From NCBI GenBank assembly GCA_010093605.1, contig MU004185.1, forward strand, positions 1,943,334 through 2,007,333: a stretch of 64,000 nt of DNA. The letters are read 5' to 3'. The notes below the pieces were generated by a model. The model saw only the letters and a program-made list of their open reading frames with translations. It made no database searches and was not told where the DNA came from. Position 1 is the first letter of the stretch; the number at the start of each line of letters is the position of its first letter. This DNA is from Lophium mytilinum. Its lineage: Eukaryota. Below are positions 13,101-53,900 of this stretch, piece by piece. The position numbers and the translations under genes are program-made.

Positions 13101-13847
13101 CGGCTTCCCCGACAGAGTGAGGAAAGTGAAACCGATATTCTCATGGGTGGTTTCTTTCCCAAATCCTCCCTCACCAAATCCGCCCCCCTCTCCGCAACCG
13201 CATACACCGAACTTGTCACCGGCCCCTTCGGCACGATCGGAAACACACTCGCATCGCACACCCTCAAATTCCCCGTCCCATGCACCACCAACCTCCCCCC
13301 CCCTGAAGAAACTCTATCACCTGTTCGGCATTCCAAGACGCTCGAAGATCGGAATACAGACCTCACCCTGGCCTTGGCTACCAGAGATATCGAATTGGTT
13401 ATCCAAAGAATCAACTTTCATCGAAAAGAACCTCGCCAATCGCAGAGCCCAATATTTGTGGCCCACCTTTTCAAAAGACCAGATATTGTCGAGTATCTTC
13501 ACAAGAATGGAATCAGCCTGTACGCGCGCGAGGTGTTTCAAATCTACAGCGAAGACGCAGATCTTGCTAAAAAATTGCTTGGCTCTATCGAAAACCACCC
13601 TATCTCGGTATCACGAGCTCAGTTACTGTCAGCACTCACTAGTTTTCTTGACAATGAGTCTTTTCCCAAATCTAAGGAAATGGATTATATATTGAACAGT
13701 GCAAGCACGGATCATAGCTTCCTTCTGGCCAGAATGACCTCTCTGGTAGACCGTCATAAGGAAAACCTCCGCACTTCAATCAAAGCCCCCGGAACCTTCA
13801 AAACCAAACTTGGGAGACTCAAATTCAGATCTATGCGTACATCATAA
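10120..13847 (+). CDS. Fungal NLR-like STAND protein: N-terminal helical (HeLo-like) domain, NACHT, degenerate ankyrin repeats
   Basis: MADPLSIAASICGIASLA N-terminus typical of fungal NACHT proteins; intron 10346-10407; P-loop GIPGAGKTTL; Walker B LVIDGLDEC; ANGMFQWVKLQ; LSHFTVKEFL; ankyrin-like SPLQFAA, TPLHFAI, LLVTHGAD. Confidence 0.9.
13157..13303 (-). pseudogene. GMC oxidoreductase C-terminal fragment, antisense within the NLR CDS
   Basis: Minus frame reads RLVVHGTGNLRVCDASVFPIVPKGPVTSSVYAVAERGADLVREDLG, matching the GMC_oxred_C terminal motif. No GMC-like sequence on either side. Confidence 0.8.
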
Positions 13848-14304
13848 TCGAGGGTCCAATTCAGAGCCTCTGGAACGTAAAGTTGACAAAATCACTAAGC
13901 TCAATGGGCCAGGGGGGTCTCAGACGATTTTACGGGCCGTCAAATAAACAGTGTTAGCATTTGGAGTTAGAACTGCGCGTAGGTCATGATGAATATTTGG
14001 ATTTAGGGTTTTTAGAACCGGTTCTATCACGTTCCAACGCTTGCGGGTCTTGCAGTATTTTCGACATGTTCAAAGGCGAAGTTCCAATAGATGGCAACAG
14101 TGCGATTGCGTGAGTGCTTCCAACGCACAAAATGGTCTGGTGGCCTGCTGGATGCTGATGTTGAGGCTGAATCTATAACTGTATAAGGTAACCCGGAATC
14201 TGTACTCTAACGCTCACAACTTCGCCCTTTTCCCCGCTCGCGGCGCTCTAGCCAAGTCAATCAATGGTCATGACGTTTCGTCAACTGCCTCCACAGATGC
14301 CAGC

Positions 14305-28151: not shown

Positions 28152-28952
28152 ATGGCAAAACAAAACTTACTCGTCCTCGGCGCCACTGGTGAGAGATCTT
28201 AAAATCAAGCTTCTCGCAATCATCTAATATAAGTTAGGCGGTACCGGCTTAGCTTTCATCAAAGAAGCTCTCATTCACGCTTCCAAGCCAAACCTCACGC
28301 TCTTAGTCCGCACTCCCTCTAGATTGCCGCAAGAGTATCTCGATGACTCCCACATCACTGTTGTTAAAGGCGAACTAAACGACCGGATCGTCGTTGACAA
28401 TGCCTTACAAGGCGTCACTGCAGTTATTTCGTTTCTAGGGCCATACATGACGCTGAAAGCTACACTGCTTCGCGATACTAGCACCCCGATTGCAGACTCT
28501 CTACCCAGTTTGTTCCACTCAAGGAAATTAGAATTGACAGTATACTCATGTACAGCCTAGCACTTTTCGCAGCCATGCGCTCAGCAAACATCACCCGCAT
28601 CCTCGCCCTTTCCACACCCACCGGGCTCCCCCAGCCTGTCTTGGAGACGAAGCCCTGGTCGTGGTGGGCAGCTGGCTGGTTCATCTACCTCGTGGTTCCT
28701 CAGGGCAATGCGGAGATGACGAAGATCGGGAGTCTGGTGTCTGGTCAGCACGATCTCGAATGGACTGTTTTCCGGGTTCCGTCTCTAACGAATGGGAGCG
28801 CCGAGAAAGTGGTTGAGGCGGGTTATTTGGGGGCGAAGGAGTTTGCTGTCACGGCTGAGCTGACGAGGGGGAGTTTGGCGAGGTGGGTGCTTGCAGAGGT
28901 GGAAGGAAGAGAATGGGTGGGACGGGCGCCAGCAGTTGCGAATAATTTGTAG
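28152..28952 (+). CDS. NAD(P)-binding Rossmann protein (NAD_binding_10 / flavin reductase-like)
   Basis: LLVLGATG/GTG, LLVRTPSRL, VVKGEL, AVISFLGP, LEWTVFRVPSLTNG; two introns. Confidence 0.85.
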
Positions 28953-29015
28953 AATCCGGTGCCCTGACCGTTACTTATAGGTGAATAGTGTAAGACGCCC
29001 CCACGCCTTTCCACT

Positions 29016-30013
29016 TCATTCCTTTAGTACACAGTCTCGATTGATAATGAACTTTCCGTCATCATTGAACTCGCTTTCAAGATAGCACGCGAGAGACTCT
29101 GCGTCGGGCAATAGGACAAGATCTCCACCACATTTCACTTTCCTCAGAGGAGCTAACAGCGCCGCGTCTCTCTCCCAATTCGGGACCACCAACCGCATGA
29201 AGGACGTCATCTTCACATGGAATGTGCTCAGATGCTCCATTTCTTGCAAGGCACTCCACATCTGCTCCCAACCTTTCGTGCCGTACTCTGGCGGGTCGAT
29301 TGGCCCCATGCACGTGTAGTCAACAATATGAAGCGCGAGAGTGCGGATCGACCGAAACCGGTGCGGGAGGACAAGTCTAGAAAACCGTGCGAAGGTGACG
29401 AAGTCGTCGAAGTAGAAAGTGTTGTTGGTATAGAGCAGATCAATGGCTTCAAGGTATCTGGCTCGAAGGTCAGCAAAGTTTTGATAGAGTAGAGATAGGC
29501 TCTGACTGAAAAGACGAAAAGAGTATACATGGCGCGACATGATAATAGTAGCGATAACGAAGTCGAGTTTGCTTTCGGATAATATAAACAACCTTCCAGG
29601 TTAGGCGGCAACTTGCACTCAAGGCACAACCAAGACGTGTGTCCAAGCCGCGGCGCCTTTTCCGAAAGATTTCTTCCCCGCCACCATCGGTGCCTCATTC
29701 GAGCGGTCTTTTGGTTTGACTCGTGGATGTGCAACGAGGGGCTGCTGCAGAGTACCTCTCGATATATACGAAGGCGTAATTCAGCAGGGAGTTTCGCAAG
29801 TAGCGGACAGGCTGATTGTTCCAGAGCCCCGGTCCTTGATTTGGAAAGCCCCCATACGTTCTTAAAGGTCTTGCTCTGTGGTGGCATTTCAAAGTCCTGT
29901 GTCAAGGCTCGCTTCCGATTCATGATGAGTTCAGAGCGATAGTCGTACAACTTTTGCTCCCGAATGCGTTGCTTCCTAAGCCGCTCTCGCATCCTTCCCG
30001 TGCCACACTTCAT
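29016..30013 (-). CDS. Hypothetical protein with F-box-like motif (DUF7730-like)
   Basis: QSACPLLAKLPAELRLRIYREVL; an intron (~29528-29458) joins LLLSCRA-IYLEAIDLLYTNNTFYF. The start is uncertain. Confidence 0.7.
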
Positions 30014-30186
30014 AATTTCAAGGAATGCAAGAATGGAAATGGTAGTTGGTTCAAGTAGAAGAGATGGAGAGTGGAGATAGAAGGGAAGACCATGCGCTGT
30101 ATATTGCACGATGTGGCGCAGTCAAGACTTTGACAACCCTTGCTGCCTAACCTCTCCCTCCGCGGAGCACGAGATTTAATATATAC

Positions 30187-30885
30187 CACTGATTTAAAGC
30201 CTCCGGAACATGACATGCACGGTTTTGTTAAGTTGAAAGGCGTAGGAGCGTCTCACAGTATTTTCGACATGTGCAAAGGTATATTTTAAGTACTCCGATT
30301 TCGAACCTTTGTATTTTTCGCTCAGGGCACTGATTTGAAGTCTCCGGAACTTGACATTCATGGTTTCATCAAATTGAAAGGCGTAGGAGCGTCTCACAGT
30401 ATTTTCGACGTGTGCAAAGGTATAGTATAAATACTCAGATTTAGGACCTATTATCATTCGCTCAAGGCGCTAATTTGAAGCCTCCGGAACTTGACATTCA
30501 TGGTTTCATCAAGTTGAAAGGCGTGGGGGCGTCTTACGCTATTCATCTATAAGTAAGGGTCAACGCACTGATCTGAAGCCTCCGGAACTTGACATTCACG
30601 GTTTTATTAAGTTGAAAGGCGCAGGAGCGTCTTACAGTATTATCGACGTGTGCAAAGACAACGCTTATGTACTCAGATTCAGAGCCTATGCATCAAACGC
30701 CCCAGACTATCTTCCGACCGTTCAAGACACCGATCTGAAGCCTCCAGAACTTGACATTCACGGTTTCATCAAGTTGAAAGGCGTGGGGGCGTCTTACAGT
30801 ATTATCGACGTGTGCAAAGGCAAGGTTCAAGTAGTCAGATTCAGAACCTATGTACTATTCGCCCCCGGGTATCTCCGACCGTAAC
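30187..30885 (+). repeat. Repeat family A, locus 1: five tandem units (about 141, 140, 98, 162, 157 bp)
   Basis: Core CACTGATYTGAAGCCTCCGGAACTTGACATTCAYGGTTTCATCAAGTTGAAAGGCGTRGGRGCGTCTYAC starts at ~30187, 30328, 30468, 30566 and 30728; the array ends GCCCCCGGGTATCTCCGACCGTAAC. Confidence 0.9.
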
Positions 30886-31017
30886 CCCCTTCCCTGGTTA
30901 CTGTTACTACCAGAAGGACCCCTATACCTAGCCATTTCGTACGCATCAACGCCCAAAACACTCCAAAAAGGGCCCACAATCGCCTAAACAACCACCAATA
31001 GACCCGAAAGTCGCCCC

Positions 31018-31728
31018 CTAGACCTCCCTAATACTATCAAGACGGGAGCCAACGTACGTCTCCATGTATCCTGAATCCCGAGGCTTCGAACCAAGCTTGC
31101 ATCCGTACGATTCCTCGACCTTCTCAGGGGTGCCTCGACCAGGGATTGGAGTGCCCAAACCCGCCACAGACTTCGCGCGATTTCGAGCCATTTCGCGAGC
31201 AGTCTTGAACGACATCTCCATCGGCAGGCTCTCCCCCGAGCATGCCGTCGAGGCCCAGCTTCCCTCCTGGGGGTCCTCAGCCTCCGCAACCGGTGGAGCA
31301 GGCGGCGGGGCAGGGCGGCGCGATTTGAACCTCTCGTTCCATTGCTCAAGATACTGCTGCGCGCGGACCTTGGTTTCGAAAGCCGGTCGCCAAGTGCTCG
31401 TAAGTCGGCTCACTTTCTCGTCGATTTTGGAGGCGTCAACGGTCTGTCGGGAGTGCTCTGGCTTCTTGACAATGAGTACAAGAGGGCGGGCGGGTTTGTC
31501 CGAATTGAGACGTCTGGTATGGCCGGGGCGGGGGAAAGGGTACCAGGGGTGGTCACCGCGCGTGAGGTCCATCGGCTGGTAATTCTCCAGCTTCTGGCGA
31601 AAGAGGGCCTCGCAGCGGGCAATGTGGGCTGCGTGGAGGGCCTCAGCGGTGGGGTCGGGGGGGTGGGGGATAGACCTGCGACTTGTAAGTACCTGGTGTT
31701 TGACGTGAGCTGCCGGAACGACTTACAT
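31018..31728 (-). CDS. Hypothetical protein; start codon probably split by an intron
   Basis: AT|GTAAGT...CAG|G (intron 31726-31676) gives MSIPHPPDPTAEALHAAHIARCEALFRQKLENYQP in frame with ORF 31018-31572. Confidence 0.55.
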
Positions 31729-37486: not shown

Positions 37487-37639
37487 AAATGCACCAAATG
37501 CACCAAATGTAACAAGTGTACCAAATGTAACAAGTGTACCAAATGTAACAAATGTAACAAATGCACCAACTGTAACAAATGCACTAAATGTAAAAAATGC
37601 ACCAAATGTAAAAAATGCACCAAATGCACCAAATGCACC
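37487..37639 (+). repeat. 9-bp minisatellite, about 17 units
   Basis: Variants AAATGCACC, AAATGTAAC, AAGTGTACC and AAATGTAAA in tandem. Confidence 0.95.
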
Positions 37640-38452
37640 ACTCGACGTCCGATACCCTGAATTCGCCCAATACCGTATTATATGTCCAAACACACGGATA
37701 TAGGACTGACCAGGCTTCGGTCTTGCTCGCTTGATACCACTGTCAGGAGTGGCCCAGGTAGTACCTACTCGGCTAGTCAAGAAGCAGCTTGATTTGAACT
37801 GTATTAACTTAACATCATCTGGATGTACCCGGCGAAAAGAAGTGGAATTAAGGACGTAAATTGAAGGGCAGTGACATTGCGTTTGCCTATCACGAAAATA
37901 TTGTGAGACGCTCCTGGGGTCTTGAAGACAGGGACGGGGTGAATGTCAAGTTCCAGGAGGTCCAAATCGCATGCCCGGAGAGTGCCTTACGCTACACTAT
38001 CGAAGCACTTCGAAACCATTTCGTGAAAGACAAACGAACTAAAGCAGTAGCGTCATATTCGACCAGTCAGAAAGATATGATCCCAGATTGCTCACCTTTT
38101 GCTGCGCCACTGCACATGCTTGGCGAGGCCGGGAGGGCTATCCGGGATGTCCATAGCGGCCAAGACTCTTGCGACCTGATAACAATACTACGCCCCATGC
38201 TGCAGCAACTCGGGACGAAAGACAGGAGTGGCCCTCAAAATGGTCCCAAGAGGCACGATCCGCAGTACAATGCGGCACAGTGTGAGATATGGGGGCGGAG
38301 GGCGGAGCAATGCCTTCAGTCTTAAGATCCCCAAACTCACCACTTTGTCACTACCTAGCATGAGCACACCTTCAGAATTACCTCTTTGACACGTTCATTC
38401 TCGCTATCTTGAACGTGCTGCTGTGGCGTGCACCTCTTCGCCTGCATCCAAG

Positions 38453-39708: not shown

Positions 39709-39929
39709 GATATTCCTCTGCACGGCTTCCGCCCTTGCTTGCCGAACACCACTGTTAGGAGCGGCCCCGCTAGAGGTGTTTAGACGATCCAAATGATGGT
39801 GTAATTTCTAAGGTACGAACTTTTGAATTGGTATTCGATGCTCTTAATTTCAAGTCACGGATATGCCGCTGCACAGCTTCCGCCCTTGCTTGCCGAACAC
39901 CACTGTCAGGAGCGATCCCGCTAGAGGTG
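39709..39929 (+). repeat. Direct repeat of about 65 bp (repeat family B)
   Basis: CTGCACRGCTTCCGCCCTTGCTTGCCGAACACCACTGTYAGGAGCG..CCCGCTAGAGGTG at ~39718-39778 and ~39869-39929. Confidence 0.9.
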
Positions 39930-40492
39930 GTAATCTTCATATTCTTCGAGCGTTCTGCCTAGTCGATTCAAGACGACATAGAAGATGAATGCTTCAAGAA
40001 AAAAGATTGCACGTGAGTTTCAGGCATGTGTACACCTATTCAATGCTGTCAGAGGTGGCCTAGCTAGTTTAGATATGGTGCGTGCCATCTTTTGACTCTT
40101 TGGAAAATGAATTGAGGCACCCATGACGGTCGCGAGCATACGTAAAGGCTTAGAATGACTTTTGGGATATCTCCGTTGTATTATACGCAATGCCGCTATG
40201 CTACTCCCCAACACCAAAGGCATCGATATCGCCTGATGACCGAAACCCAAATCACCAATCGTACATCAACAGCCTGAACTCCAGTTCGTTCACGCAGGGA
40301 GTCACACCAGCTCCAGATCCCGGTCCCAAGCATATCCGCCGCTTGTACCATGAATCACAGTCACTTGCCCTCCTGTTGAAGCCGACTTTCGCTGCCCAAA
40401 GCAACACATCAGGCCAGACCGGCTGATCTTGCCCTGCGAATCCTATCCTCAACTTTGTTAAATGGGTTCCGCCAACTCTCAAGGAAGATACT

Positions 40493-42249
40493 TCAATCCT
40501 CGACACTTACGCCAGCCTTGTCTCCCGCCTTCGCACTCTGATCTTGAGTCTTCGACTCTTTTCCCTGTGCACTCTTCTCGTTAGCTTTTGTGCTGACAGC
40601 AGACTTTTCTCCGGCAGGAGCTTTTGAGGCAGTTGGAGCTTCATCTTCCTCATCGCTCTCCTCCTCAGATGAGTCTGACGAGTCGGATTCCTCCTCGTCC
40701 TCGTCCTCCTCTTCCTCACTACTCTCCTCTTTCGCTTTGACGACTGGCTTTTCACCAGCCTTCGCGCTCAGCTCCGGCTTCTTTGCGGCAGGAATTTTTG
40801 ATGCGGTTGGAGCTTCTTCTTCGCTCTCATCCTCCTCCGACTCGTCAGACTCGTCGGACTCATCCTCTTCACTACTCTCCTCTTTTTTCACGGATGCCAC
40901 TACCTTTTCTTCATGCTCCGGCTTAGGCCCCCTGTACAATGGGCTCAATGTGCTCATCACATCCGGTCCAGGGTCACCCGCCTCCTCGTCAGTCTCATCC
41001 TCACTGCTTTCCTCTTCGTCGCTTTCCTCCTCCTCGCTCTCCTCGTCTTCGTCTTCATCATCATCCTCTTTAGTTGCTTGGCTGTTCTCATTCGCCTTGA
41101 TATCTTCCGGGCTAGCCTCAGTGTTCGAATGGTGCACAGCTACGGGTGCTTCAGAGACTCCACCAGTAGCAATGTCCCTAGGCGGCGCATCGGATTTGTA
41201 CTTGTTGTCCCCAGGCTTAGCTAGGCGTGGTATAGCCTTCATAGTATCACCTGCCTTCTCTCCCTTCTTCCCAGTAAACTTGGCGGTATCCTTCTTTTGA
41301 GCAGATTTGGGGGTATCGTTCTTCTTAGTAGTTGAAGCAGCAGCCTTCTTCTCAGTGGGCTTGGCGGTACCCTTCTTCTCAGCAGACTTGGAGGTATCAG
41401 TCTTCTTAGTTGTCGAAGCAGTAGCCTTCCTCTCAGTAGACTTGGCGGTATCCTTTTTCTCAGCAGATTTGGCGATATCGTTCTTCTTAGTAGTCGAGGC
41501 AGTAGCCTTCTTCTCAGCAGCCTTAACGCCCTCTTTCTTGGTCGCCTCGACGGTAGGGGTCGCGGGCAGCGGCACCGATTTCGGGCTCAAGATACCACGA
41601 GCTGCAGCAGCCTTCGACGGTGTTGTGGGAGTGTTCACCTTCTCCGTCAGCAACGGATTGGTAGTGGCGATGTTGACAGGTATAGGTTTCTTCGCGGCGC
41701 CCTTCGCGGCGGCTTCAGCGCTGAGGACGCGCATGGCGAGGGCAGTGGCGGGATCCTTGTTCTCCTGCTTGGCGGGAGCTTGAGCAGTGGTTTTGGGGGC
41801 AGATGCTGCGCCGGGGACAGGTTTCGGGGTCATGGGAGCCGCAGCGACGACCTTGATGTTGTCGTGCAGTTCGCCGTACTCGTTCCATTCTTCGATCTCC
41901 TCGAGGTCCTAGGACGGACTGTCAGAATAGCTCGTACTAATGATTTGGGACAAAACGTGCTATCCTAGCTCTCTGTAGCCAACGCCTTGATATCATATGA
42001 AGAAGCTGCACTTACAGCAATAACGTAACCCCCCTGCACCAGCATGGGGAGCTTTTTCCCCATCGCCCTCCTCTGAAACAGTTTCCGTGCCAAATCATCT
42101 GTCGCGGTGTCCTTGTACGTGAACGGAATCTTATTCGCCTTCAAGATCGTCTCAATGCGGGATGTTGCAGTAACGATATGTGAGGACCCCGCAGTGAGCG
42201 AGGTAAAGAGGTAGAGGGTGGGGTCATTGTCGAACACCGCTAGCTCCAT
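40493..42249 (-). CDS. Glutaredoxin/SH3BGR-like N-terminal domain plus a Lys-rich and acidic low-complexity tail
   Basis: LYLFTSLTAGSSHIVTATSRIETILKANKIPF...KKLPMLV../DLEEIEEWNEYGEL; one intron; about three 28-aa repeats (AEKKATASTTKKND) and repeated EESSEEEDE blocks. Confidence 0.8.
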
Positions 42250-42748: not shown

Positions 42749-44315
42749 TTACTGCATGATCATGCCCACATTGCTCTTGGCAGCCGAAACGGCCATCAGC
42801 GCGTCATGAACTTCGAACTCCTCGAGAACAGCGCCGAACCTAAGAATTCAAACGTCAGAGAGCAGGTTCAACGTAGGGGAAGGAAGCTCAACATACCCAT
42901 AACACCTGACCTTTGCCAACAAGTCTCCCTTGATAGCCTCAAACTCCTCCCTCGTGATGTCATAAAAGCGCTCATGCTTCATGATCATCGCCCACGCCAT
43001 GATGGGCGTAATCTCGCCATCTAGTGGCAGTCGGTTGCTCAGATCCAATAGCTTCAGCAGGTCTGGCATCGTTATGTCAGGCATTCGGTGCGGATATGGG
43101 TCGTTGGGAGTGGCCACAATATGCGACTCGGGCGGGCAGGTGGCCATGAGCGCGTGGCCGGATACGTCGGCGTCGGAGTCGGAGGCCCGCACCAGCAGCA
43201 TCTGCATGTGGTCCATGCAAGGTCGCTCGAGACTGTGGGGACACAGAGAGGTGTCAGAATGATTCTTCGGGGATAGTGGGTGGCTGACGGATGGTATGGT
43301 CTTCTCTTTGTTCATGCCTCGTGAGAGGTATAAACAAAAAGATGTAATGAAGGAGAGTCGTTGATGGAGGTGGCAAGGTGTGATGGAGGGAGGTAATAGG
43401 CTACTGCTGGGGTGGAGGAGAAAGATAGGGCGTTCGATCGTACGTCAACACGAAGTCAATTCCGACTTGGTCATAATCCATGCCGTTGTTTGGCTGCTGT
43501 CTGGGATGCGGCGGGGGCGACATCTGCCCAACCCCTTGAACTTGCGGCGTTGCGCTTGGAGGTGATGTGTAGCCGGTAGAGTTTGAACCGGGTCCGTAGC
43601 TGCCGGAAATGCTGCCGGTTGAGCTACCACCGTAGTTGGAACTACCAACTCTGCCGAAGCCAGCGGTACCTGGGCTAGACAAGTCGAATGATATACCGTG
43701 TGCGATGAGGATCTCTTTCAGCCTTCGGTTCTCTTCCGCTATAGCGTCTCGTTCTCTAGCAGTGGTGCCGAAGGTATCTTTTAGGCGAAGTACTTCTTGC
43801 TCGAGAGCTTTGATGTACATTTCTTTACGTTCTCGATGAGTCCTGGTCAAATCATTAATAAGATGCTATGCAGAGTATGGATGATGCCTACCTCTGAGCT
43901 TGCCGATTTAGTTCCTGCCTCCGAGTCAGAGCGGGTTTACTATCAGGCTTGGGACCCCTTCGCTTCGGTGTTTGTCCATCTAAAACACGGTCAGAGTCAG
44001 CACTATAGAGGCTTAGCGACACGAACCTCTAGTAGTCTTCTTGTCGCTGGTCAAGCTTTTGAAGAAACCGAAGTTCGCTAATGGACTCTGTGACTTGGCT
44101 GATTCACTGCCTGCAGGAAACCAATGCCCCATACTCTCCTTTACCGACACGAGCCCAGATGAACTACCCCGTCTATGACTGCCCACGAAAAGATCCTCGG
44201 AAGGAAATTGTCGAGGAACATGAAACGGGGTATGTCCAACCGGTACGTCGGAAGGAGAGTAGTTGGGCGGAGACGTCAGCACATCTGACCAGGGTGGATA
44301 TCTTTGATGAGCCAT
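42749..44315 (-). CDS. flbB: bZIP transcription factor FlbB-like
   Basis: PKRRGPKPDSKPALTRRQELNRQAQR/THRERKEMYIKALEQEVLRLK; GIDFVLT/LERPCMDH; GEITPIMAW; KVRCYG/FGAVLEEFEV; several introns. The start is uncertain. Confidence 0.8.
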
Positions 44316-46473
44316 GGCAATGGAAAGAGATAGTAATGAGACACTTAAAAGAATAGATGTTGTCGCTTGACTAGAAATGAAGGCCCGGAGTACATTATAT
44401 GCATTTCTGTGATGAAAGAGATAGCCATCCTCCATACGAGTGTTGTTGGGATCAACTGTCGCAGCACACGGCCGGCGTATTGAAAAGCCGATAGAAATAT
44501 GATTTTACCCACGCCGGAGGTCTATTCTGAGTTGTCTTGATTCCGGGGAAGACTCAAGACGACTCCGTGCAGCCGGGACACCTCTCAAAAGAGATAACGC
44601 TTGCAGTTCACCCGTAAAGGGTATACAGATCGAGACAATCTAGCTCATAACAGGCTGTCGATGCGGTGGCCGAGCAGAACGGGCGCGAAGATCGCATGGG
44701 ATGAAGCCCGAGGATGGAACATGGACAACGTCGCGCAAACGAAAAGCATCAAAGCGACGGGCCAAAGCATGAAGAAAGAGAACGTACCGGAGCCATTGCG
44801 CATCGAATGCAGGTCGCCCAGGTCGGTGCTACCTTTGTGGTCGGGTGATATAGTTGCCATGCTATAATTCGCGCATTGATCGACAGAAGTCGCTGTCAAG
44901 GCGATGGCCTATCTGAACAGATGTAAGCTTTATGTAGCTTTGAATGTATGGCGCAGATGAAACAGTGTTCACGGGGTGGCGCAGAGTACTGGGTGTAGTG
45001 CAGCGGATCCAGATATCTCAACGGTGAGGGAGTGTGAGGGATAACAGTAAATAGCGCGGACGAATAGAAATATGCGAGATCCCGCACGGTATGACGAGCA
45101 AATGGGGTAGTTGGGGAGATGGACTGGAAAGTAGCATACGTAGTGTGGTGGGATGGTGCAAGTGTAGAATGGAGAAGTTGAAGCAACAACAACACTCACA
45201 CGATAGATGCTGCAAAGACAATGCTTTGAGTGACGCGTTACAGTCGGTAGTCAGGACGTGTGAGAATTTGCACAGCCCCAAGAGGTTTGGCTATTTGGAA
45301 TCCTGGAACATGGGATGGTAGGGCTGGATGGAGTTTGGGTGTCACGGCGGCACAAAATCCGGCGGAGCGCGGGGTTCGGTGCCAAATCCGGCGGCTTGTA
45401 GCCTTCCAGCTGGCCGCTACAGCCGTTGCGCGGTGCCAAGCGGGGCGTGGGGAGGTCTCTCTAGAGGGTAGTCGGCGGCGGATGATGACAGCGTGGTGAG
45501 GAAGCTGGCTGAATTGAGGTCGGCCGATGAAACGCAGGGAGCAGCGAGATTCTTGGCGAGGTGCTACGTGCGCTTCCAACTGCACTCAGGCGTTAGGCTT
45601 GTGGCTTGCAAGGCCTTTTTGATGCACGTCTTCGTCACTTCGAAGGGCTGAGTGCTGCGGTGCTGTGCGTGGCATCCGGCTACATCGGCAGCGGAGAGCA
45701 GTACTGCTGAGAGTGGCGACTGGGCATGTAAGATAGGTGCGGAGAGCTGAGGGCATCGCCATTATTCTGTCAAAGCGCACACAGCAATAAATTATGCAGG
45801 CCGCTGTGTCAGCAGAGCCTAGATCCCGATTCGCATTCGTCCTTCCACCCGCCTTCAGCCTCCCATTCCAACAGCTTTCACCCGAATCGACCCCGGCACG
45901 TGCCTGAACGACCTAGGGAAGATCCTTGGGCCCTGAAATGGCTCCCGAGCCATATGGCTCTATCAAGCCGCCCGCCGGCTACACCAGGCGTGTAGTCGAC
46001 TGAGAGAATATCTAGTCAGTAAGTGCATTTTCAGCCTCAGGAACGCTCAACATCATTATGAAAACGATGTCTGAAGTCTTTAAGTTGCTGGCCATGCCGT
46101 TTTCTTGAGTTTTCACACAGATGAGCATGAACAAGCAGAAAGTACAGATTTCCAAGTAAATAACTCTGTTCTGTAGCCCTGACCGGTAGTCGTTGCACCA
46201 CACCACCCCGTCCTGCAAGGGGTGTCCTTTCCCGTGCCATCAAACATCAACCGTACCAGAACCACTTGAAGCAGAACCCCAGAACTGACAAGCGGCCTGA
46301 CAGGCCTCTCTCCCGAGATACAGCCCTGCCGCCGGGTACCTAGGAACCTCCAAATGCACTAACGACTAGTGTGGACCCTCCAACCAATAGAACCACCCTA
46401 GCGTCGTTGATTATACATTTCCTCACCAGCTTCATCCCATCTCACCTCGTTGCGCTTCCATCTCACATCGCAC

Positions 46474-47773
46474 ATGCCGTTCTCCCCGCTTGCCCAGCTC
46501 CGCGGGTTGGTCCTTCTCCTCCCATGGACCGCGTATCTCCTTGGCGCCGACGTCGCGCTCTCGCTGCTTCTGCCTCTCAAACTACTCTTCCCCACCCTCG
46601 TGTTTAACGCGTCCTCTCTTATCGCAAACAGCGTGTGGGCGTGGGTCCAAAGAATCTTCGTCACCTGGAATCATGCCAGCATTATCGTTTCTTCGAACCA
46701 AAGGCTACCGAAAGGGGAGTCGGCGATTGTGGTCGCGAATCACGTGTCCTGGACCGATTTCTACCTGATCCAGGAGGTCGCGCAACGGTCGGGGATGCTG
46801 GGGCGGTGTCGGTGGTTTGCGAAGAACAGTCTACGGTGGGTGCCGTTTCTGGGTTGGGGCTTGTGGGCAATGGGGATGCCGCTTGTATCCAGGAACTGGA
46901 CAAGGGATGAGCGGGAGTTGGAGAAGGTATTTAGAGGAGTGGTACAGAAGAAGTGGCCTGTTTGTGAGTATCTTCATCGATTTTGTTATGTTTCTCATCT
47001 TTCTAGTTTCGTTCAGTGTTCTTTACCATATTTTATAAACTCATACAGTGACAAGCCATAAGTCTGGGCACACCGGTTCGCCACTGCTTGGGTACCCTGA
47101 CAGGATCACGAAGATTCAAGGGCGATGTCGAGTTCTCAGCAGTGTATTCTAAACTGCCTCTAACTGATTGGCTGCTCAGTAGACACGCTAGCTCTTACAG
47201 CGGTGTCAAGTGAGCAACATTGGAGCCAAGCAGTGATATATTCGTGTGTCCAGATTTATGGTCCAATACTGTATATAATCTTCAATATCTTGAGTCATTA
47301 AAAAGCACCCAACTTCATCCTCTCTAACAACCTCAGGGCTCATTTCCTACAGCGAAGGCACCCGCCTCACCCCCTCCAAACACCTCTCCAGCACCCAGTG
47401 GAGCCGCGACCACGACCGCCCCATCATGAAGCACGTTCTCTACCCCCGCATGCACGGCTTCGTCGCAACCGTCAACGCTTTGCGGCACACCAAGCACGTG
47501 CGCGCCGTCTACGACATGACTATCGCCTACGCCCACGGCCAGAACTTCATGCAAGCGCCCTCTTTCTGGGACACCTTTACGACCGACTTCTTAAAAAGCG
47601 AGTACAAATTCTACGTGCACGTGGATCGTTATCCAATGACCGAGCTGCCGAAGACCACGGAGGGGCTGAGTCAGTGGCTGGAGACGAGGTGGGTAAAGAA
47701 GGGCGATAGATTAGAGGCGCTAAAAGGGAAGTTGGAAAGAGGAGAGGAGTGGGTGGCTGAAGAGATCGAATAG
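46474..47773 (+). CDS. Lysophospholipid (PlsC-family) acyltransferase
   Basis: NHVSWTD, FAKNSLRWVPFLGWG, YSEGTR, HVLYPR, VYDMTIAY; one long intron (~46964-47336). Confidence 0.92.
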
Positions 47774-47790
47774 GTACCTGTGATGGGGAA

Positions 47791-48285
47791 GGCACTAATT
47801 CACAAACCCTAGAATTTGACATTCACGGTACCATCATTTTCAAACGCTTAGAGGTGTCTCATACTATCTATCTATAAGTGATGGTCAAGGTTTCAATTCG
47901 TAGTCTCTAGGATTTAACATTCATGGTCTCAACATGTTCAAACCTTCGGGGGTGTTTCACGCTATTTCATGTGTAGTCAAAAGCAATGTCCGACTACGCA
48001 GATTCCGATCTGTGTGCAAGTGGCAAAGGCAATGAATGTATCGTCTCTGGATTTTACATTTATTATAATTAAAGCTTTCGCGGTGTCCCACACTCTATAT
48101 CCGTAAGTGATATTCTTGATTCCAACTTTCAGCTTTCAGAATTCAATATTCACCGTTTTATCATGTTTGAAAGTGCAGGGGTGTCTTACAGCATTGTCGC
48201 CGCGTGCAAAGGCAAAGCTCAAGTACAAAGTACACAGGTTCGGAACCTCTGTATTGGACGGCCCCGGGTATCTCCCGACCGTAAC
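47791..48285 (+). repeat. Repeat family A, locus 2: about four diverged units
   Basis: Degenerate cores (GAATTTGACATTCACGG, GGATTTAACATTCATGG, GAATTCAATATTCACCG) with the same short and long unit tails; ends GCCCCGGGTATCTCCCGACCGTAAC. Confidence 0.8.
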
Positions 48286-49916
48286 ATCTTGTATCTGCCG
48301 TTCATGCTCCTCGTACTGGTCGGGTTGCGCATCCTCTAGAACCTAATCCCAGTGGACTTTGGTTTTGAACGTGAGGAGTGCGAGTCCTTTCCACCTATCG
48401 CCTAAGTCGTGTTTCTTCCTTTGGACGTAAACTTTCATTGTGTCCAAGTAATACCGTCCGACTGGAAATCCGGTATGGAAGTCTTTCGGAATCGCAGATG
48501 GTTTATTTGGAAGGAACTTGTGAGATAATTATAGTCCTATCCACTTCGGTTCCATCTTACTACTACGTTAAGTATCTTTGGCGTACCGTCTGAGCAATAC
48601 TAGGTTGCTTTGTCAAGGGGGTGTCTAATAGATTCTTTTATCGTACGCTTTCATCTATTTAACTTGGTCGTTAAGCATTTCTTGCGCCGCAACATTCCTC
48701 CCCTCATCCATTCTGGTCAGCCGAGTGGAGTGATTTTCGAGCGCAAGCAACGCCGCATCCCCTTGGTTTTCAAGGACAGATAAGTCGATGATTGCTCTGC
48801 GAATATCATCATCCAATTCATTGGATTGCCGGAAGTACCTCGGGTTGAGTATCGTATTTGATTAATCTACCTGGCACGTAAGCGACAAACTCTACCGCGA
48901 TGTCTCTAGCAGTAGAGACAAGTGGTCTAGTAACTATCCATGACGAAATCAAAAGGTGCCAAGTCTGGAGACTGATCCCCAGCTGGATGTCGGTATTGTA
49001 CAGGCCGACGAGGATGAAGGGGGGAGCTATCAAATGGTATATGTCAGCCAAAATCACACTATTGGTAAAGATATAACACATTAGTAGCTGCACATCGCCA
49101 GACAGGTAGACTAATACACGATTCAATCATAGACCAGTCTACATACCAGCTGGCTGCGGCGGCGGCTGGCGGCGGCGTTCTGCACGGCGTCGTTTGATAC
49201 GTCTGTATCTCCGCTTCCCGCGTTGCTTTCCACGCTGGTTTTGGAAATGTTGACCAAGTCCACGCCTACGTTCAGGTCTTCTGCAGGAGTGTCGTCACGA
49301 TATGGCTGGACATATCCCAGCTGCCGTCCCTTCTTAAGGGCGAGCGCGCGGGTGCCAAATTTTGAAAATGGTACGCTGCTGTCCGCGGTCGGGAGCAACG
49401 GAAAGAACGATGGGACGCAGTGTATAACAACTGGCGAGCCATGGTTGCCACGGGGGAGTATGCCAACTTCACACGCATGGTGCTCGGGGAGGAGATGAGA
49501 TTACGGGACCAGGAGTACCGGAATATGCTCGGCCGCAATGCATTTTCGAAAATGTCGAAGCAGCGCTTCTGTTTCAAGTGGGACCAGAAGACCGACGAGG
49601 AAAAGGGCAACGACATTGACCTCGGCACGGAGATCGACAGGATTATGAACGCAAGACCATCGTCGACGCTTTTAACAGTGAACAGGCACGGCTATTAGCA
49701 GAGCGATACGTCGGGCTGCGCCACTCCACCCGGAACCTGGGACACGGCTATCGGAAATACAAGACCCAGAGTGAAGGTTTAAAAGCCGCTTTGTACGCAA
49801 AACGCCTCAATCACCCCAAAAACGGGAACCACTAGAAGACCCGGAAACCGCCCCCTACCTATTAAGTCGGTTACGTGTCCTTTTAGGGGCGTCTTGGGCG
49901 TTGTTGCGTACGCGGG

Positions 49917-50087
49917 AAGCTGGTTGATGGCGTTTGGGAAGAACAGTCCGCCGCCGTCTAGATTGCCCGTCCGTACAACGTGGAGTGTATTGTTCTTGAT
50001 CACACTCCAGAATATATCAAACGTGATAATCATAAAGGATATCATCAACAGCGCGATTACTGAGTAAATGGGACCTAAATTGGACAT
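49917..50087 (-). pseudogene. Fragment of a CSC1/OSCA (DUF221, RSN1_7TM) channel gene
   Basis: GPIYSVIALLMISFMIITFDIFWSVIKNNTLHV...DGGGLFFPNAINQL follows the family pattern GLIYSVIAPL...FW..Y.YN.LYV...DTGGL.FP.AINQL; no other part of the gene is nearby. Confidence 0.65.
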
Positions 50088-50372
50088 GAGGACTTACGGG
50101 TTCGTCTCATCGTCGATCGTATATAAGAAGTCTCCGCCTTTAACAGACGAAGAGAAGTATATCTCAGGACTCTCCGATTCATTCTAAGGCGCTGCACACC
50201 CAGCGAGTTCCCAATCAGAAACCCGCCGGGGCCCTTGAAGCCGTTGGTGAGGCGACAGATCGTCTAGGATGCGCAAAAGACAGCTTCTGGAACCCGAATG
50301 AGCCAGTGACATAATTCGAGTTTGTCAAGGAGATTGAGACGGACTTGAGAAGGCTTGGGCCTCAAAATGTTT

Positions 50373-50603
50373 TCAGTTTATGCAGTCTCGACGGTTACCG
50401 TTTCCGTGGTACTTCGTAATAATCGCAACTGCCTCGTCGGTGCGGCCCTGGGAGACCAAACTATCGAGACTCTCCGGAATGCACCATATGGGCGTCATGC
50501 CGAGACACGGGATGACAGCCTGCAAGATTGACGGAATCTGCCACGCCCAGGTGGCTAAGAATAGGGGTACTTCTGGTGGTAAGAGTGGCCAGAACGTGGT
50601 GTT
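50373..50603 (-). pseudogene. Fragment of a sugar porter (lactose/cellodextrin permease-like)
   Basis: NTTFW...TWAWQIPSILQAV...IWCIPESLDSLVSQGRTDEAVAIITKYHGNG matches the WxWRIPSxLQ / PESPRWL / KYHGNG motifs, with PESPRW degraded. Confidence 0.8.
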
Positions 50604-50955
50604 ACGGTCGGGAGATACCTGGGGGCGAATAATCTGAATATGAGTACCTAAACTATGCCTTTGCATACGTCGAAAACACTTTGAGACGCCTCTACGCAGT
50701 CAAACTTGATAAAATTGTGAATGTCAAGTTCCAGAGGCTTTAGATTGAATAGATTTATTTCAGCGCGTTTTACACGGTGCATACTACCGTTTGAGGTCCC
50801 CTAAAACGTCGAAAAAATCCAGTACACGATATCAAATATTAGAGGCTTCAGATCAGTGCCTTGAACCTTACTTACAGATGAATAGTGTGAGACGCCCCTA
50901 CGCCTTTCAACTTGATGAAGCCGTGAATGTCAAGTTCCGGAGGCTTCATATCAAC
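50601..50955 (-). repeat. Repeat family A, locus 3: about three units, inverted relative to loci 1 and 2
   Basis: Reverse complement has GAAGCCTCCGGAACTTGACATTCACGGCTTCATCAAGTTGAAAGGCGTAGGGGCGTCTCAC and ends GCCCCCAGGTATCTCCCGACCGTAAC at 50601. Confidence 0.9.
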
Positions 50956-53900
50956 GCTTCAGCTCCAAGTACTGCCGAGTGTCAGTACCACTGACCGATA
51001 ACGTAGCAAATCACACTCACTGTTCGATAGAGCTCATCATCAAGCGCCGTCACACCACCGCCACCCTCTCTCCTCCTTGCTGATGGCGAGTAACACATGT
51101 TGATCACCACCAACAGTCCGAAACTCCATGGCAGCAGCAGTCTGTTGGCCCGCAAGACCGCCACACTCCTCCCTCCCAGCACCATGCCTCTGTGTAGTTG
51201 GCTCTTTTTGCTGGACCATGAAAACAACATGTTCGTCGAATTGATCCAAACCCCTTCCAACTCCCTGCAGGACTTGACGGTGCAAAGACGAGGAACGTTT
51301 TATAGGAGAAAATGAGAAAGCAGCGGTGGATTAATCAGCAACACGTGAGCTATCACGAGGTTCTTCAACCTAGGATAGCCAGGGAGGGGTTTGATCGAAC
51401 GGTGACGAGACGAGCGGTGACGAGACAGTTTGAAATTGAGAGCATCCGACGAAAAATTGCTCATATCCAGCGTAAATCACGCATTACCAGACATCCTCTA
51501 GATAGCACCATATCAGAACAAATCACGAACCCGCCAACCATCTCCGCCGTATCGACTTAAGACTTCACACAACCTAAATTCGACATACACCGATAATTCT
51601 GAGACACATATCTGAGACAAACCACTCGATATGAGAACGAGCTACGGTACTAGGTCATAAGTCTTGGGCACACGGATATCAATGCTTGAGTGCCGCTTTT
51701 GCAAGTTGGATGCCACTGTCAGGGGCAGCCCCATTGCGAGGATACCTCCTAGTCAATAGGAAGCACAGATTACACTATCCAAATTTTGACATGACGACTC
51801 CATTGTGGTCACCCCACGGGGGCACCCCTAGGATTGGCAAACGAGTGTGTACAGATTTGTGGGCAGCCTCTGTATATTGCAGATATGGTGTCTCATTTTG
51901 CTGCTTATTCTGAAATCTGGTTCCCAGTCGGCACGCGCGGGGTTTAGTCCGCAGACTGAGCAGTTTCCCTAGGAAGGGATAGTTGACGGGAGGGGTAGTT
52001 CAATGGAGGAAGCTAATTTGATAGCGAAGGCGGTGGGGTAGTCCGTGATAAGGCGTGACGAGTGAGCAAGTTCAGCTTCAAAGATTGCGAATGGCTCGAT
52101 TAGCGATGATAGTTCCAGGAACATGGTAGCGATGGCAACGGACGTTTCCCGTAACGGCGTCAAGTAGAGAGGGGTGAGCAGTTTCCAAAGGTTAGCACGG
52201 TTCAGTTGTAGATGATGTCTTGGTAGCGAGTTCGCCGGACGTGTCGTCAAACGTCAGAGTGGGAGTGCGGGGAAGATGAGAACGTTGAAGTGGGATGTTT
52301 CGGATGTCTGGCGGTGCAGTAGCCGTACCAGAGTTGACGGACGGGTTTTACTACTAGGTAAGTACGACAACAGACTAATGATATCATACTACAGTAAGTT
52401 TAGTGTATCACTGGAGTAGAGGGAGAACTCGCTTATCGATGTCCTTGCTCCTGAGCACCGTGATGAACGATGCGGGTGAGCATGGTGGAACTGCTTGTAA
52501 TACCAGCGTCCTATACGGTGGCTCACAAAAATGCCTCGTGGCCCTAGCGCGAGTCTCGAGATAAGGCAATCGAGGAAAATGGTACATCGGACGGGTGTCT
52601 AGAACTTGGCAACGGGCAGTCCCGCGGGTTAGGACGCTTAGTTAGAACTAGTAAACCCTTTTGTTGCATTTAAAGGTGCGCGCGTTGTGGGAATCCTAGC
52701 TGAACCATGGTTGCAACCCAACTAGGTTGAAGCAATTGTGGACTTGCAATCGCGCCATCCTAGGAACTCGTTCCAGGGAACTTAGCACCTCTTACCATGA
52801 TCTCAGTTGAATGTTATCTCGACAACAAAGACTCGGGATCCGCCAGGCCGACTCGCAAGATTTTGACGTCAAAAATCCGCTCTTTTGCTGCAATCAGGAA
52901 GAGTGAACTCTAAAACTAAGGATAGAAGCAAAGACGTTTCTAGCGCAAGCAAGCCGTGGCGGATTGCCCTTTGTAAGCACGTGGCAGTCGTTGGTGGGAT
53001 AGATAACGAGTGTGGATCCAAGGGTTCAAAAATAGGGTTCTTTGTTCGCGGTGATATCAGTGGCTTGATGAGCGACATTTCGCCTTTGGTGTTGTAATTA
53101 CCGGAGAGAAAGGTGACCCAGAATTGGGGAGTTCCATGGCGTGCTGTCGTAGTTGGTGGTAAGTCTAGAGCCTTAAATTCCTCACGCCCTTATATGCTAG
53201 CAAATCGACGATCGCGTTCTTCGAGAGTCGTAGCCATGGCTGCGAGAGCAGGCCAATTGGCTTGATGATCCTGCTGTGAAACCTTTGAAGGATAAAGTCC
53301 AAGAAGTCTGTTACATAAAAGAGAAGAAGTACGGAGTAGTCTCCGCCGCATGTAGAAAGAAAATAAAACGTGTGACACAGCGAGAAACCCTCTTAGCCTG
53401 AGCTGTGGTGATGGTGGACCCTTCAGCCCAACGGCCATCCTCGTACGGCGTTGAAAGGGGATGTGCTTTGTCCGGCTTTCCACGAAAGGCAATATTCCGT
53501 ATGACGCTGTGCTATGCAATAATGTGCGATGATCCTCGATGTTCAAAGCAATACTTCGCAGGTTCTCTGTCGATCTCGATGTCTTGCAGTCGGACCATGT
53601 TGGAGGTTTGAGGAGACAGTGACCTTCACATGGTAGAACTAGAGGTCAAAGCGGGGTCTACGAGCGCCATGCCGCAGATTGATGTCAAGGAGCCGAATAA
53701 GGCAGGAACTAGGATCATCTGCGAGCGCGGGATATGGCATTGATATGGAAGAAAGAACAGCAAACGAGGAGGGGTTGGTACGAGGGGTGAATGTGTTGCT
53801 GGGGTGGAGTGGCTCACACTATCAATCTGAACATCCTGCGCGACATACGTGCATGCATCGCGGAAGGGTTGGGACCCATGTCTCCGGCGGGCTGGACACC

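Follow-up and report, generated by a model that had tools for sequence, protein, structure and literature searches.

A single-copy mosaic of three exon fragments in one of two tail-to-tail repeat copies in Lophium mytilinum

New genes can be built from patchworks of exon pieces, which also point to error-prone repair or transposon capture. Filler DNA, a templated patchwork formed at repaired breaks by SDSA with template switches, has been described mainly in plants and animals. Among mobile elements, same-strand gene pieces are typical of Helitron captures. Pack-MULEs and other Pack-type elements hold gene fragments between matched terminal inverted repeats and are flanked by a target-site duplication (9–11 bp), and foldback elements have long inverted arms of tandem subrepeats at both ends of family members. 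To our knowledge, well-dissected exon-patchwork cases in fungi are few. According to PMC5148889, canonical Helitrons start with 5'-TC, end with 3'-CTRR and carry a short hairpin 10–12 nt before the 3' end. The non-autonomous HINE elements of Helitron2/Helentron (DINE-1-like) are characterized, in PMC4067079 and PMC5148889, by 12–15-bp terminal or subterminal inverted repeats, a 3' palindrome and insertion at TT.

We analyzed a 64,000-nt stretch of Lophium mytilinum contig MU004185.1 (assembly GCA_010093605.1), hereafter the window, in which two copies of a repeat termed family A occupy 47789–50963. In each copy, an array of tandem 98–164-nt units leads into a 49-nt segment and then a unique ~85-nt tail. 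The copy designated REF, with unit lengths of 141, 140, 98, 162 and 164 nt, served as the reference for what is contiguous in family A, and the unit profile was built from its array (Table 1). The sequence CCGACCGTAAC occurs exactly three times in the window, at 30875–30885 (+), 48275–48285 (+) and 50601–50611 (−), and its opposite strands at the last two positions show that the left (L) and right (R) copies point inward. Together with the unit-profile matches of the L array (+; 47789–47889, 47892–48010 and 48125–48259) and the R array (−; 50957–50861, 50863–50830 and 50746–50632), these positions confirm the inverted arrays with inward CCGTAAC ends that an initial annotation of this DNA had described. 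Its observation that the arrays differ in divergence also holds, as identity to the REF array (30181–30885) is 70–77% for L and 79–92% for R. L and R arrays are 68–77% identical to each other, and identity between units of the family ranges from 60 to 92%. The arrays begin at ordinary unit starts. Both copies are old, non-coding and degenerate.

Table 1. Coordinates (window positions) of the family-A copies and of the sequences inserted in them.
Feature	Position	Strand	Description
REF copy of family A	30181–~31020	+	5 units, 49-nt segment, 3 nt, tail; no insert
L array	47789–48285	+	3 profile units and 1 degenerate unit (~48011–48124, by eye); ends CCGACCGTAAC
L-internal	48286–49783		1.5 kb, single-copy; in place of the 49-nt post-array segment of REF
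Coding-like frame	49198–49698	+	One in-frame TGA at 49363–49365
L tail	49784–49858	+	Homologous to REF 30930–~31018; score 65, z 7.5
R tail, truncated	49862–49912	−	Homologous to REF 30938–30989; score 54, z 9.6
CSC1/OSCA-type (RSN1_7TM) exon fragment	49918–50081	−	Pfam profile positions 206–259 of 274
Conserved ~1150-aa hypothetical-protein fragment (piece B)	50171–50254	−	24/28 residues identical
MFS sugar-porter exon fragment	50393–50553	−	Pfam Sugar_tr profile 167–217 of 452
R post-array 49-nt segment	50552–50600	−	Homologous to REF 30886–30934; holds the codons earlier read as 'NTTFW...'
R array	50601–50963	−	~2.3 units; ends CCGACCGTAAC at 50601–50611

The family continues beyond the arrays. 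In reverse complement, 50552–50611 aligns to REF 30875–30934 with 78% identity over 60 nt (local score 68, shuffle maximum 33). Scanning 850 window chunks with the REF tail returned the L tail (63) and the R tail (54) as the top two non-self matches, followed by a score of 43. Part of the R tail (49879–49912 versus REF 30971–30938) is 85% identical, the R tail was also recovered by an exact 19-mer pattern match, and the L tail keeps the REF-type junction AGCC..TTT..GTACGCA. The homology of the L array to REF ends at CCGTAAC. The tails of L and R meet at ~49858–49862, where the R tail is truncated at its contact with the end of the L tail. In REF, the homology of the tails runs out at ...CCCCCTAG (31018–31021; CTAG, CTRR-type), in L at CTAC (49855–49858), with only 3-bp stems recognizable by eye upstream. 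All tail comparisons rest on the three tail-bearing copies REF, L and R. REF positions 30934 and 30938 lie 3 nt apart; their counterparts in R, 50552 and 49912, are separated by 640 nt. Since REF resembles R more than it resembles L, the contiguity that L has in common with REF is most simply ancestral and the 640 bp of R derived.

Since CCGTAAC is only the end of the last unit and the 2.3 kb between the arrays contains the tails of both copies, the locus is, as judged from these alignments, two copies of family A arranged tail to tail and not one element enclosing cargo. The earlier alternative of independent insertions into a decaying region comes close to what two differently diverged copies suggest. 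R is unlikely to have arisen as a fold-back inverted duplication of L, given that its similarity to REF exceeds its similarity to L. A nested insertion, with the rest of the L tail beyond R, was also considered and rejected: 50950–51500 and 47300–47800 show no homology to the REF flanks. More generally, the REF flanks share no homology with those of L or R, and no direct repeat abutting 47783 and 50963 could be read from the sequence.

The 640-bp insert of R (49913–50551) lies between its 49-nt segment and its tail. It contains three minus-strand pieces of 80–165 nt each, on the same strand as the R copy and separated by unassigned spacers of 89 and 138 nt. The sugar-porter and CSC1/OSCA fragments had been recognized previously and are borne out by Pfam and by contig matches; piece B is a third fragment added here. 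Sugar_tr matched only 51 residues, positions 50–100 of the ORF (E 1.1e-4, 21.7 bits with a cut-off of 22.3), and in a phmmer search against PDB, where MFS transporters matched at E 0.003, the five best of nine matches started at residue 49–50. A search of this ORF against longer proteins gave nothing at E ≤0.001, probably because the word index failed on a diverged piece of 51 residues. The sugar-porter piece is a fragment, not a gene. The RSN1_7TM match covers residues 5–59 of its ORF (E 5.8e-6, 26.3 bits, cut-off 28.7). Piece B aligns to residues 1012–1039 of a 1,165-aa dothideomycete hypothetical protein (P0001), and no Pfam family was found in P0001 or P0003.

Relatives of the fragments, which the initial annotation had suggested seeking, were found in three separate contigs, one for each piece. 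For this purpose, 47500–51200 was searched at ≥80% identity against Logan contigs from two sequencing runs (X1 and X2), both probably derived from the source sample. The sugar-porter piece (50400–50553) matches a contig of 3.2 kb in X1 and 6.7 kb in X2 with 17 differences and 2 gaps (~88%), bases 50189–50254 of piece B match an 11-kb contig with 2 differences (~97%), and the CSC1 piece (49918–50068) matches a contig of 24 kb in X1 and 78.5 kb in X2 with 25 differences and 2 gaps (~83%). Contigs and locus diverge at the loose ends 49918, 50189 and 50393; the CSC1 contig runs on unlike the locus before 49918, and 50393 forms the other boundary of the sugar-porter match. Family and fragment homology overlap by 2 nt at 50552/50553, the one readable junction. 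No single Logan contig bridges 50400–50422, a stretch that has a word in common with the sugar-porter paralogue, and the join here rests on the original assembly. At ≥80% identity, neither the spacers nor any part of 47500–49917 has a second copy in the source-genome contigs, so the mosaic has not been amplified; as a whole it is single-copy. Reading frames stay open within the pieces, which are out of frame relative to one another. Among 33 listed differences that separate the RSN1 and sugar-porter pieces from their contigs, third codon positions account for 20 (p 0.0012 against 1/3), indicating that coding constraint was in force while much of the divergence accumulated. The contigs could be paralogues of the actual donors, or the pieces could be remnants of genes that formerly functioned. 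The mosaic is probably inert.

These boundaries change how the locus was first understood. The sugar-porter piece had been thought to begin right at the repeat terminus, with AAC as the asparagine codon of NTTFW. Its homology instead starts at 50552/3 according to Pfam, the PDB phmmer search and the contig match, and the 49 nt following CCGTAAC, including the NTTFW stretch, are repeat sequence. What looked like capture exactly at the terminus is thus a reading-frame coincidence inside the repeat, and the main practical result is in this respect corrective. The proposal of a capture or shuffling element keeps its core, namely unrelated gene pieces on one strand inside a family-A copy, each with a relative elsewhere; it loses the two arrays as element ends and the capture from the CCGTAAC terminus, beyond which the family continues. 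A GMC piece in an NLR gene had been attributed to perhaps the same process, but Pfam finds no GMC domain in ORF 10392–13844 at E up to 1.

Gene pieces appear to be confined to the R copy and its 640 bp, so that the mosaic first assigned to the entire 2.3 kb is retained for 49913–50553 and not for 48286–49783, the 1.5-kb insert of L, in which no gene fragment was detected. L-internal has no match at ≥80% to other contigs. Of ten of its ORFs scanned with Pfam, nine yielded no family and one a match no better than chance (E 0.15); elsewhere in the window, tblastx produced only short matches (E 0.025 or weaker), and ORF 48821–49126 (−) found no match among longer proteins and no usable match in the atlas. 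The stop-interrupted frame reported earlier does exist and has a coding-like composition, with GC1/GC2/GC3 of 0.51/0.41/0.71 in 49366–49695, resembling real genes of the window, and of 0.60/0.42/0.64 in 49198–49362. Its interpretation as a host-gene fragment is not sustained: ORF 49366–49695 (+) has 0 matches among 1.84 billion representatives, and no second genomic copy of the frame was seen at ≥80%. Phage-portal look-alikes of this ORF in the atlas (0.97) were dismissed as composition artefacts, with a recognition value of 1559 (<2300) and no Pfam support. The frame is a candidate orphan or relic.

Family A is small and does not look like an active transposon. Genome-wide, ~12–13 unit equivalents match 50881–50953 at ≥80%, seven of them in this window, and the unit profile locates six family-A loci within 37 kb. 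In another part of the window, a DUF7730 gene that is intact has inverted family-A pieces on either side (28950–29019 (−) and 30183 (+)). The unit alignment reveals no conserved structure or hairpin (consensus −1.1 kcal/mol, 5 pairs). The unit motif returned 0 matches in a metagenome scan; applied to the window, the same pattern recovers 5 units. No Rfam or tRNA match was detected in the window, arguing against a SINE or tRNA origin of the units. RIP was rejected as the source of the L divergence on the basis of unremarkable indices and mixed substitutions, that is, no RIP signature. Among the 144 scanned of 226 window ORFs of ≥90 aa, none encodes a transposase, Rep or helicase.

We favor, with about even confidence, the reading that the 640-bp insert arose long ago as a patchwork, put in place when a break was repaired. 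A single old break at the array/tail boundary of R would have been repaired with template switching, as filler DNA or a synthesis-dependent patchwork, whereby at least three short internal-exon pieces were copied from unlinked genes for an MFS sugar porter, a ~1150-aa protein and a CSC1/RSN1 channel. The insert would have landed exactly between the 49-nt segment and the tail of R, and the array/tail boundary of L would have been struck independently, yielding a different 1.5-kb single-copy insert. The anatomy of R, its three fragments and their relatives outside the locus are direct observations: sequence contiguous in REF and in L, which keeps the junction, is interrupted in R, and the patchwork has ectopic counterparts still present in the genome (~83%, 97% and 88%), even if these contigs may be paralogues. 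From this anatomy we infer that repair was the mechanism, that there was a single event and that R gained an insertion rather than REF suffering a deletion. Several observations speak against repair, the third-position excess among them. All pieces lie on the strand of R, which random filler would produce by chance in 1 of 8 cases, and conserved ends with a variable interior also fit a non-autonomous, cargo-carrying transposon family.

Such a family, Helitron/Helentron-like or Pack-type, with the array as its 5' part and the tail as its 3' end, is somewhat unlikely in our judgment, although it accounts for several features. REF would be the empty form, R and L would have gained cargo during transposition or gap repair, and R would have landed by the 3' end of L. 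Array and tail are conserved and the interior varies in all three tail-bearing copies, both inserts fall inside the same ~50-nt interval of a ~840-nt element, and the gene pieces come from unlinked loci on one strand. The clustering of six loci within 37 kb would also fit, as would the CTRR-type end of tail homology in REF, but this end is CTAC in L. Fungal Helitrons with captured gene pieces have been reported (PMC4289320, PMC5148889). Against this stand the failure to find Rep, helicase or transposase among the scanned ORFs, a target-site duplication, a clear terminal motif or a hairpin, as well as the truncated R tail, a mosaic present as a single copy, a tiny and old family and a unit motif that the metagenome scan did not return. 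An extended version would make family A an undescribed fungal non-autonomous mobile element with a tandem-unit head and a short unique tail; breakage would recur where head and tail join, and exon pieces of unlinked genes, all on one strand, would close the gap, making the family a 'Pack-like' exon shuffler that spreads mostly locally (the six loci in 37 kb), next to an NLR and other fast-evolving genes; we regard this idea as speculative and quite improbable. The pieces might alternatively have decayed in place, as minus-strand genes for the sugar porter, the 1150-aa protein and CSC1 located after the acyltransferase gene and whittled down by large deletions, with the family-A pieces around them representing separate partial insertions. 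We consider this unlikely. Their common strand agrees with it, as does the third-position excess, by which the pieces diverged largely as working genes. However, the relics split one family-A copy whose two parts, with only 3 nt between them in REF, share the same orientation and have diverged similarly from REF (tail 85%, array 79–92%), and reducing genes of ≥1.4 kb to 80–165 nt would take four or more large deletions, and still the frames within the pieces are open.

Flanking synteny bears on decay in both directions. The acyltransferase (stop at 47773) has counterparts in 21 related metagenome loci at only 24–52% amino acid identity, and in 12 of these it is collinear with the gene at 42776–43990. 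Downstream, the site is a synteny break with nothing shared with relatives, as decay would permit: the flanks of seven related loci had nothing in common with the window at E ≤1e-8. No such genes appeared in the 10-kb downstream flanks of the relatives, as five peptides of the locus found no match in the 21 loci (best tblastn E 0.21); with 43–52% amino acid identity, however, these relatives are too distant to show an empty site. A single composite element of foldback or Pack-type, in which the inverted arrays are terminal inverted repeats around 2.3 kb of captured fragments, is the least credible reading and very improbable. It would explain why tandem-unit arrays lie inverted, CCGTAAC ends inward, with gene pieces between them, and the DUF7730 gene is likewise flanked by inverted family-A pieces. 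Yet its arms are only 68–77% alike, with R nearer to REF than to L; the two tails facing each other in mid-interior imply that the 'interior' itself comprises two element bodies; REF is one-armed; 47783 and 50963 carry no direct repeat; and the gene pieces occupy only the right 640 bp.

Under the favored break-repair reading, the locus provides a clean anatomical example because the three-way comparison of copies shows the exact insertion point. Having been hit twice independently, the boundary between array and unique tail may be a fragile site. The mosaic is small, old and single-copy, and its pieces are not in frame with one another, which makes a present-day role unlikely. We see the locus as a modest curiosity, whether of DNA repair or of transposon cargo, rather than as a demonstrated gene-shuffling element.

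Compared with described systems, L and R resemble foldback elements in that their arms are inverted tandem units and differ from them in that REF has a single arm. As in Pack-MULEs, gene fragments lie between inverted repeats at 47789–50963; unlike in Pack-MULEs, the fragments belong to one copy (R) only, the arms are 68–77% identical, two tails face inward and no target-site duplication was found. Family A is non-coding and contains tandem repeats, which are central in HINE/DINE-1 elements according to PMC4067079. The 12–15-bp subterminal inverted repeats and the 3' palindrome of HINEs are not common to the copies. The only candidate, a 12-nt inverted match (92%, 30575–30586 and 31076–31087), is present in REF, ~55 nt past the point where its homology to L stops, and none was seen in L or R. 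In line with Helitron and Helitron2 captures as presented in PMC5148889 and PMC4289320, R holds same-strand pieces from multiple loci, its ends are conserved around a variable interior and no target-site duplication was found. In contrast to Helitrons, no 5'-TC, clear 3' hairpin or shared asymmetric terminal inverted repeat was seen in family A, nor a Rep/Hel partner among the scanned window ORFs, and the family combines a tiny copy number with an unamplified mosaic. The R insert differs from usual filler DNA in being large and orderly (640 bp, three exon pieces, one strand) and in representing an old event that we infer from its remains. It is like filler DNA in that it splits contiguous sequence, consists of short pieces of unlinked loci with an overlap of ≤2 nt at the one readable junction and is single-copy.

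Family A, a small repeat family, is represented in the window by a better-preserved reference copy (REF) and by a left (L) and a right (R) copy at the locus studied here. Exactly three sites in the window carry the 11-mer CCGACCGTAAC: 30875-30885 (+), 48275-48285 (+) and 50601-50611 (-). Because L and R carry it on opposite strands, their arrays are inverted with these ends facing inward, in agreement with the initial annotation, which had also correctly described the arrays as unequally diverged (L versus REF, 70-77% identity; R versus REF, 79-92%; L versus R, 68-77%). The family-A substitution pattern lacks a RIP signature, and the units yielded no Rfam family or tRNA match and no conserved fold. 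As a genome stand-in, we used the contigs of the only two sequencing runs containing the stretch (X1 and X2), both from the probable source sample and offering no independent support, and aligned them to 47500-51200 at a likeness of at least 80%; results apply to the matches listed (8 of 16 per run). The only multi-copy part of this interval was unit 50842-50953, with nine contigs covering position 50920 and a summed word depth of 2065 versus 153-165 at single-copy flanks. This depth corresponds to ~12-13 unit equivalents genome-wide, of which seven were placed in the window, so that family A is small and mostly local.

Repeats and gene pieces in the window, with the evidence for each.
Feature	Position	Strand	Evidence
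L family-A tandem units	47789-48285	+	unit profile, alignment
R family-A tandem units	50601-50957	-	unit profile, alignment
REF array, five units (141, 140, 98, 162, 164 nt)	30181-30885	+	tandem repeat and profile search
Diverged family-A units	13856-14090	+	profile search
Diverged family-A unit	28950-29019	-	profile search
Diverged family-A unit	37869-37968	-	profile search
MFS sugar-porter piece	50393-50553	-	Pfam Sugar_tr, PDB phmmer
Piece B, fragment of 1165-aa hypothetical protein	50171-50254	-	24/28 residues identical to residues 1012-1039
RSN1_7TM (CSC1/OSCA) piece	49918-50081	-	Pfam, profile positions 206-259 of 274
Second repeat family copies	37697-37766, 39709-39778, 39860-39929, 51694-51731, 2430-2467		
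Inverted match, 40 nt at 88%	9593-9632 / 40038-40077		
Inverted match, 71 nt at 77%	10247-10317 / 39930-40000		
9/18-nt tandem repeat, 17 copies	37487-37640		
27/81-nt tandem repeat, 9.7 copies	41263-41524		inside long minus-strand ORF 40496-41908

The window comes from a filamentous ascomycete, and its ORFs encode NACHT/ankyrin NLR, DUF7730, amino-acid permease, AreA-GATA-like and ELMO domains (Pfam). The domain scan covered 144 of the 226 ORFs of at least 90 aa; the 82 omitted were alternate-frame overlaps chosen by eye or had been scanned earlier at the locus. The NACHT-ankyrin NLR ORF (10392-13844) is followed, right after its stop, by two strongly diverged family-A units. Inverted family-A sequences enclose a DUF7730 gene that appears intact (minus strand; ORFs 29019-29600 and 29231-30121): a partial unit (-) occupies the 70-nt gap up to the stop of the neighboring NmrA-like gene, and the REF array (30183-30885, +) lies ~170 nt upstream of the likely DUF7730 start. 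Unrelated to family A is a second family of short repeats (38-70 nt; 63-91% identity), of which one copy sits right of the R array at a distance of ~750 nt. Two inverted matches tie the NLR gene start and the sequence just upstream to a place ~30 kb off and, judged by alignment, may represent a partial inverted duplicate of the NLR 5' region.

The CCGTAAC end had been taken for the terminus of the element. By sequence comparison it is no terminus of family A: ...CCGACCGT also ends the fourth REF unit, where another unit comes next, and REF sequence beyond the last unit recurs at the L/R locus. R 50600-50552 is homologous to REF 30886-30934, a 49-nt segment (wider alignment, 78% over 60 nt; score 68 versus a shuffle maximum of 33), and R 49912-49879 to REF 30938-30971 (85%; gapped alignment reaching 49862, z 9.6). 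On the plus strand, L 49784-~49858 is homologous to REF 30930-~31018 (z 7.5). Scanning the REF tail against 850 overlapping 300-nt chunks on both strands ranked the L and R tails first and second after self (scores 63 and 54; next best 43, 99th percentile 37), while flanks outside the REF array and tail showed no homology to L or R flanks. These recurring segments define a family-A copy as array, 49-nt segment and ~85-nt tail. On these alignments, the locus is two family-A copies tail to tail, with the L tail ending at ~49858 and the truncated R tail at ~49862. The distance from the 49-nt segment to the tail is 3 nt in REF and 640 nt in R (49913-50551). L has the REF-type junction but no 49-nt segment; its homology to REF ends at CCGTAAC, followed by 1.5 kb (48286-49783).

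Every detectable gene piece lies on the minus strand within the 640 bp of R. The sugar-porter and CSC1/OSCA fragments reported initially are present, both under the Pfam cut-off: Sugar_tr spans residues 50-100 of ORF 50699-50373 (E 1.1e-4; 21.7 bits, cut-off 22.3), and RSN1_7TM scores 26.3 bits (E 5.8e-6; cut-off 28.7). The best protein match of piece B carries dothideomycete names, and this 1165-aa protein has no Pfam family. The sugar-porter piece had been thought to begin right at the terminus with NTTFW, a start that is contradicted by three independent lines placing the onset of homology at nt 50552/3, namely Pfam, PDB phmmer (match beginning at residue 49-50 in the best five of nine; E 0.003) and a genomic paralogue match ending at 50553. 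Residues 1-49 of the NTTFW... ORF are the R array end plus the 49-nt family segment, the frame being open across the repeat.

The proposed 2.3-kb mosaic therefore shrinks to the R insert, as searches of 48286-49783 gave no gene fragment. Nine of ten L-insert ORFs had no Pfam match and the tenth a chance-level one (E 0.15), tblastx against the window gave only short matches (E 0.025 or weaker), and ORF 48821-49126(-) had no match among longer proteins and no usable one in the atlas. The stop-interrupted frame exists (49198-49698, +, one in-frame TGA), and its GC1/GC2/GC3 of 0.51/0.41/0.71 resembles window genes (acyltransferase exon, 0.52/0.41/0.79); its capture is unsupported, with 0 matches among 1.84 billion protein representatives and, among the matches listed, no further copy in the genome. 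The frame could represent an orphan gene or a relic. Phage-portal fragments, considered as look-alikes of this frame, were rejected for low recognition in the atlas. Nor did Pfam, at E up to 1, give a GMC oxidoreductase domain in ORF 10392-13844, where a GMC piece had been suggested within the NLR.

The donor search matched the three pieces to separate contigs, which may be paralogues of the templates: 49918-50068 to a 24-kb (X1) or 78.5-kb (X2) contig (25 differences, 2 gaps), 50189-50254 to an 11-kb contig (2 differences) and 50400-50553 to a 3.2-kb or 6.7-kb contig (17 differences, 2 gaps). At the loose ends 49918, 50189 and 50393, the matching contigs continue unlike the window; their letters, read by eye, extend the donor reading frames, so that breakpoints appear to lie inside exons. 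At a likeness of at least 80% and among the matches listed, neither the spacers (50082-50170 and 50255-50392) nor 47500-49917 had a second copy: the mosaic is without amplification. Three contigs (left part of the locus, right part and sugar-porter paralogue) end at word 50400-50422; the join there is bridged by no listed contig and rests on the original assembly. Third codon positions hold 20 of the 33 listed differences in the RSN1 (11/20) and sugar (9/13) pieces (p 0.0012 against one third), so coding constraint was acting while much of their divergence accumulated. The real templates may differ from the matching contigs, which would then be paralogues of them, or the pieces may once have lain within working genes. 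Codon positions 1 and 2 suggest, as a rough estimate, a neutral divergence of ~6%, the same order as that of R to REF.

A search with the last acyltransferase exon recovered 21 metagenome loci, 19 at 43-52% amino acid identity and two at 24-27%; gene 42776-43990 was collinear with the acyltransferase (46411-47773) in 12 of them. At a threshold of E 1e-8, the downstream flanks of seven related loci gave no match to the window, and five peptides of the locus had no match in the 21 loci (best E 0.21). Synteny thus breaks off at the acyltransferase stop; these metagenome relatives are too distant to reveal an empty site or rule out former genes.

Comparison of the three copies suggests that R received an insertion at the array/tail boundary, since the junction is uninterrupted in both L and REF and REF is closer to R than to L. 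The insert combines short internal-exon pieces of unlinked loci into a patchwork, possibly filler DNA laid down by template switching in break repair. We prefer this origin with about even confidence, as it fits the unlinked short exon pieces, the overlap of 2 nt at the single junction that could be read, and the single-copy state. These observations also fit the capture of cargo by a non-autonomous transposon with array and tail as its conserved ends, and the location of all three pieces on the strand of R speaks for it. We nevertheless regard capture as unlikely, given the lack of amplification, of a visible target-site duplication, of a clear terminal motif common to the copies (CTAG in REF, CTAC in L), of common HINE-type subterminal repeats and of a Rep/helicase or transposase among the 144 of 226 window ORFs scanned.

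That a former row of genes decayed in place is favored by the codon-position signal but weakened by the relics lying within one family-A copy, and is a decidedly doubtful origin. The single foldback or Pack-type element enclosing captured fragments, as first proposed, is highly improbable with two inward-facing tails, arms only 68-77% alike and R closer kin to REF. The initial observation is partly confirmed and its interpretation partly supported. With filler DNA as the favored origin, the R insert is a small, old exon patchwork, probably inert, within one member of a tail-to-tail pair from a minor repeat family. For comparison, PMC5148889 describes Helitron1 and Helitron2 terminal features and capture as rare in Fusarium, and PMC4067079 the HINE/DINE-1 structure. 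The exon patchwork adds another case to a known kind of event.
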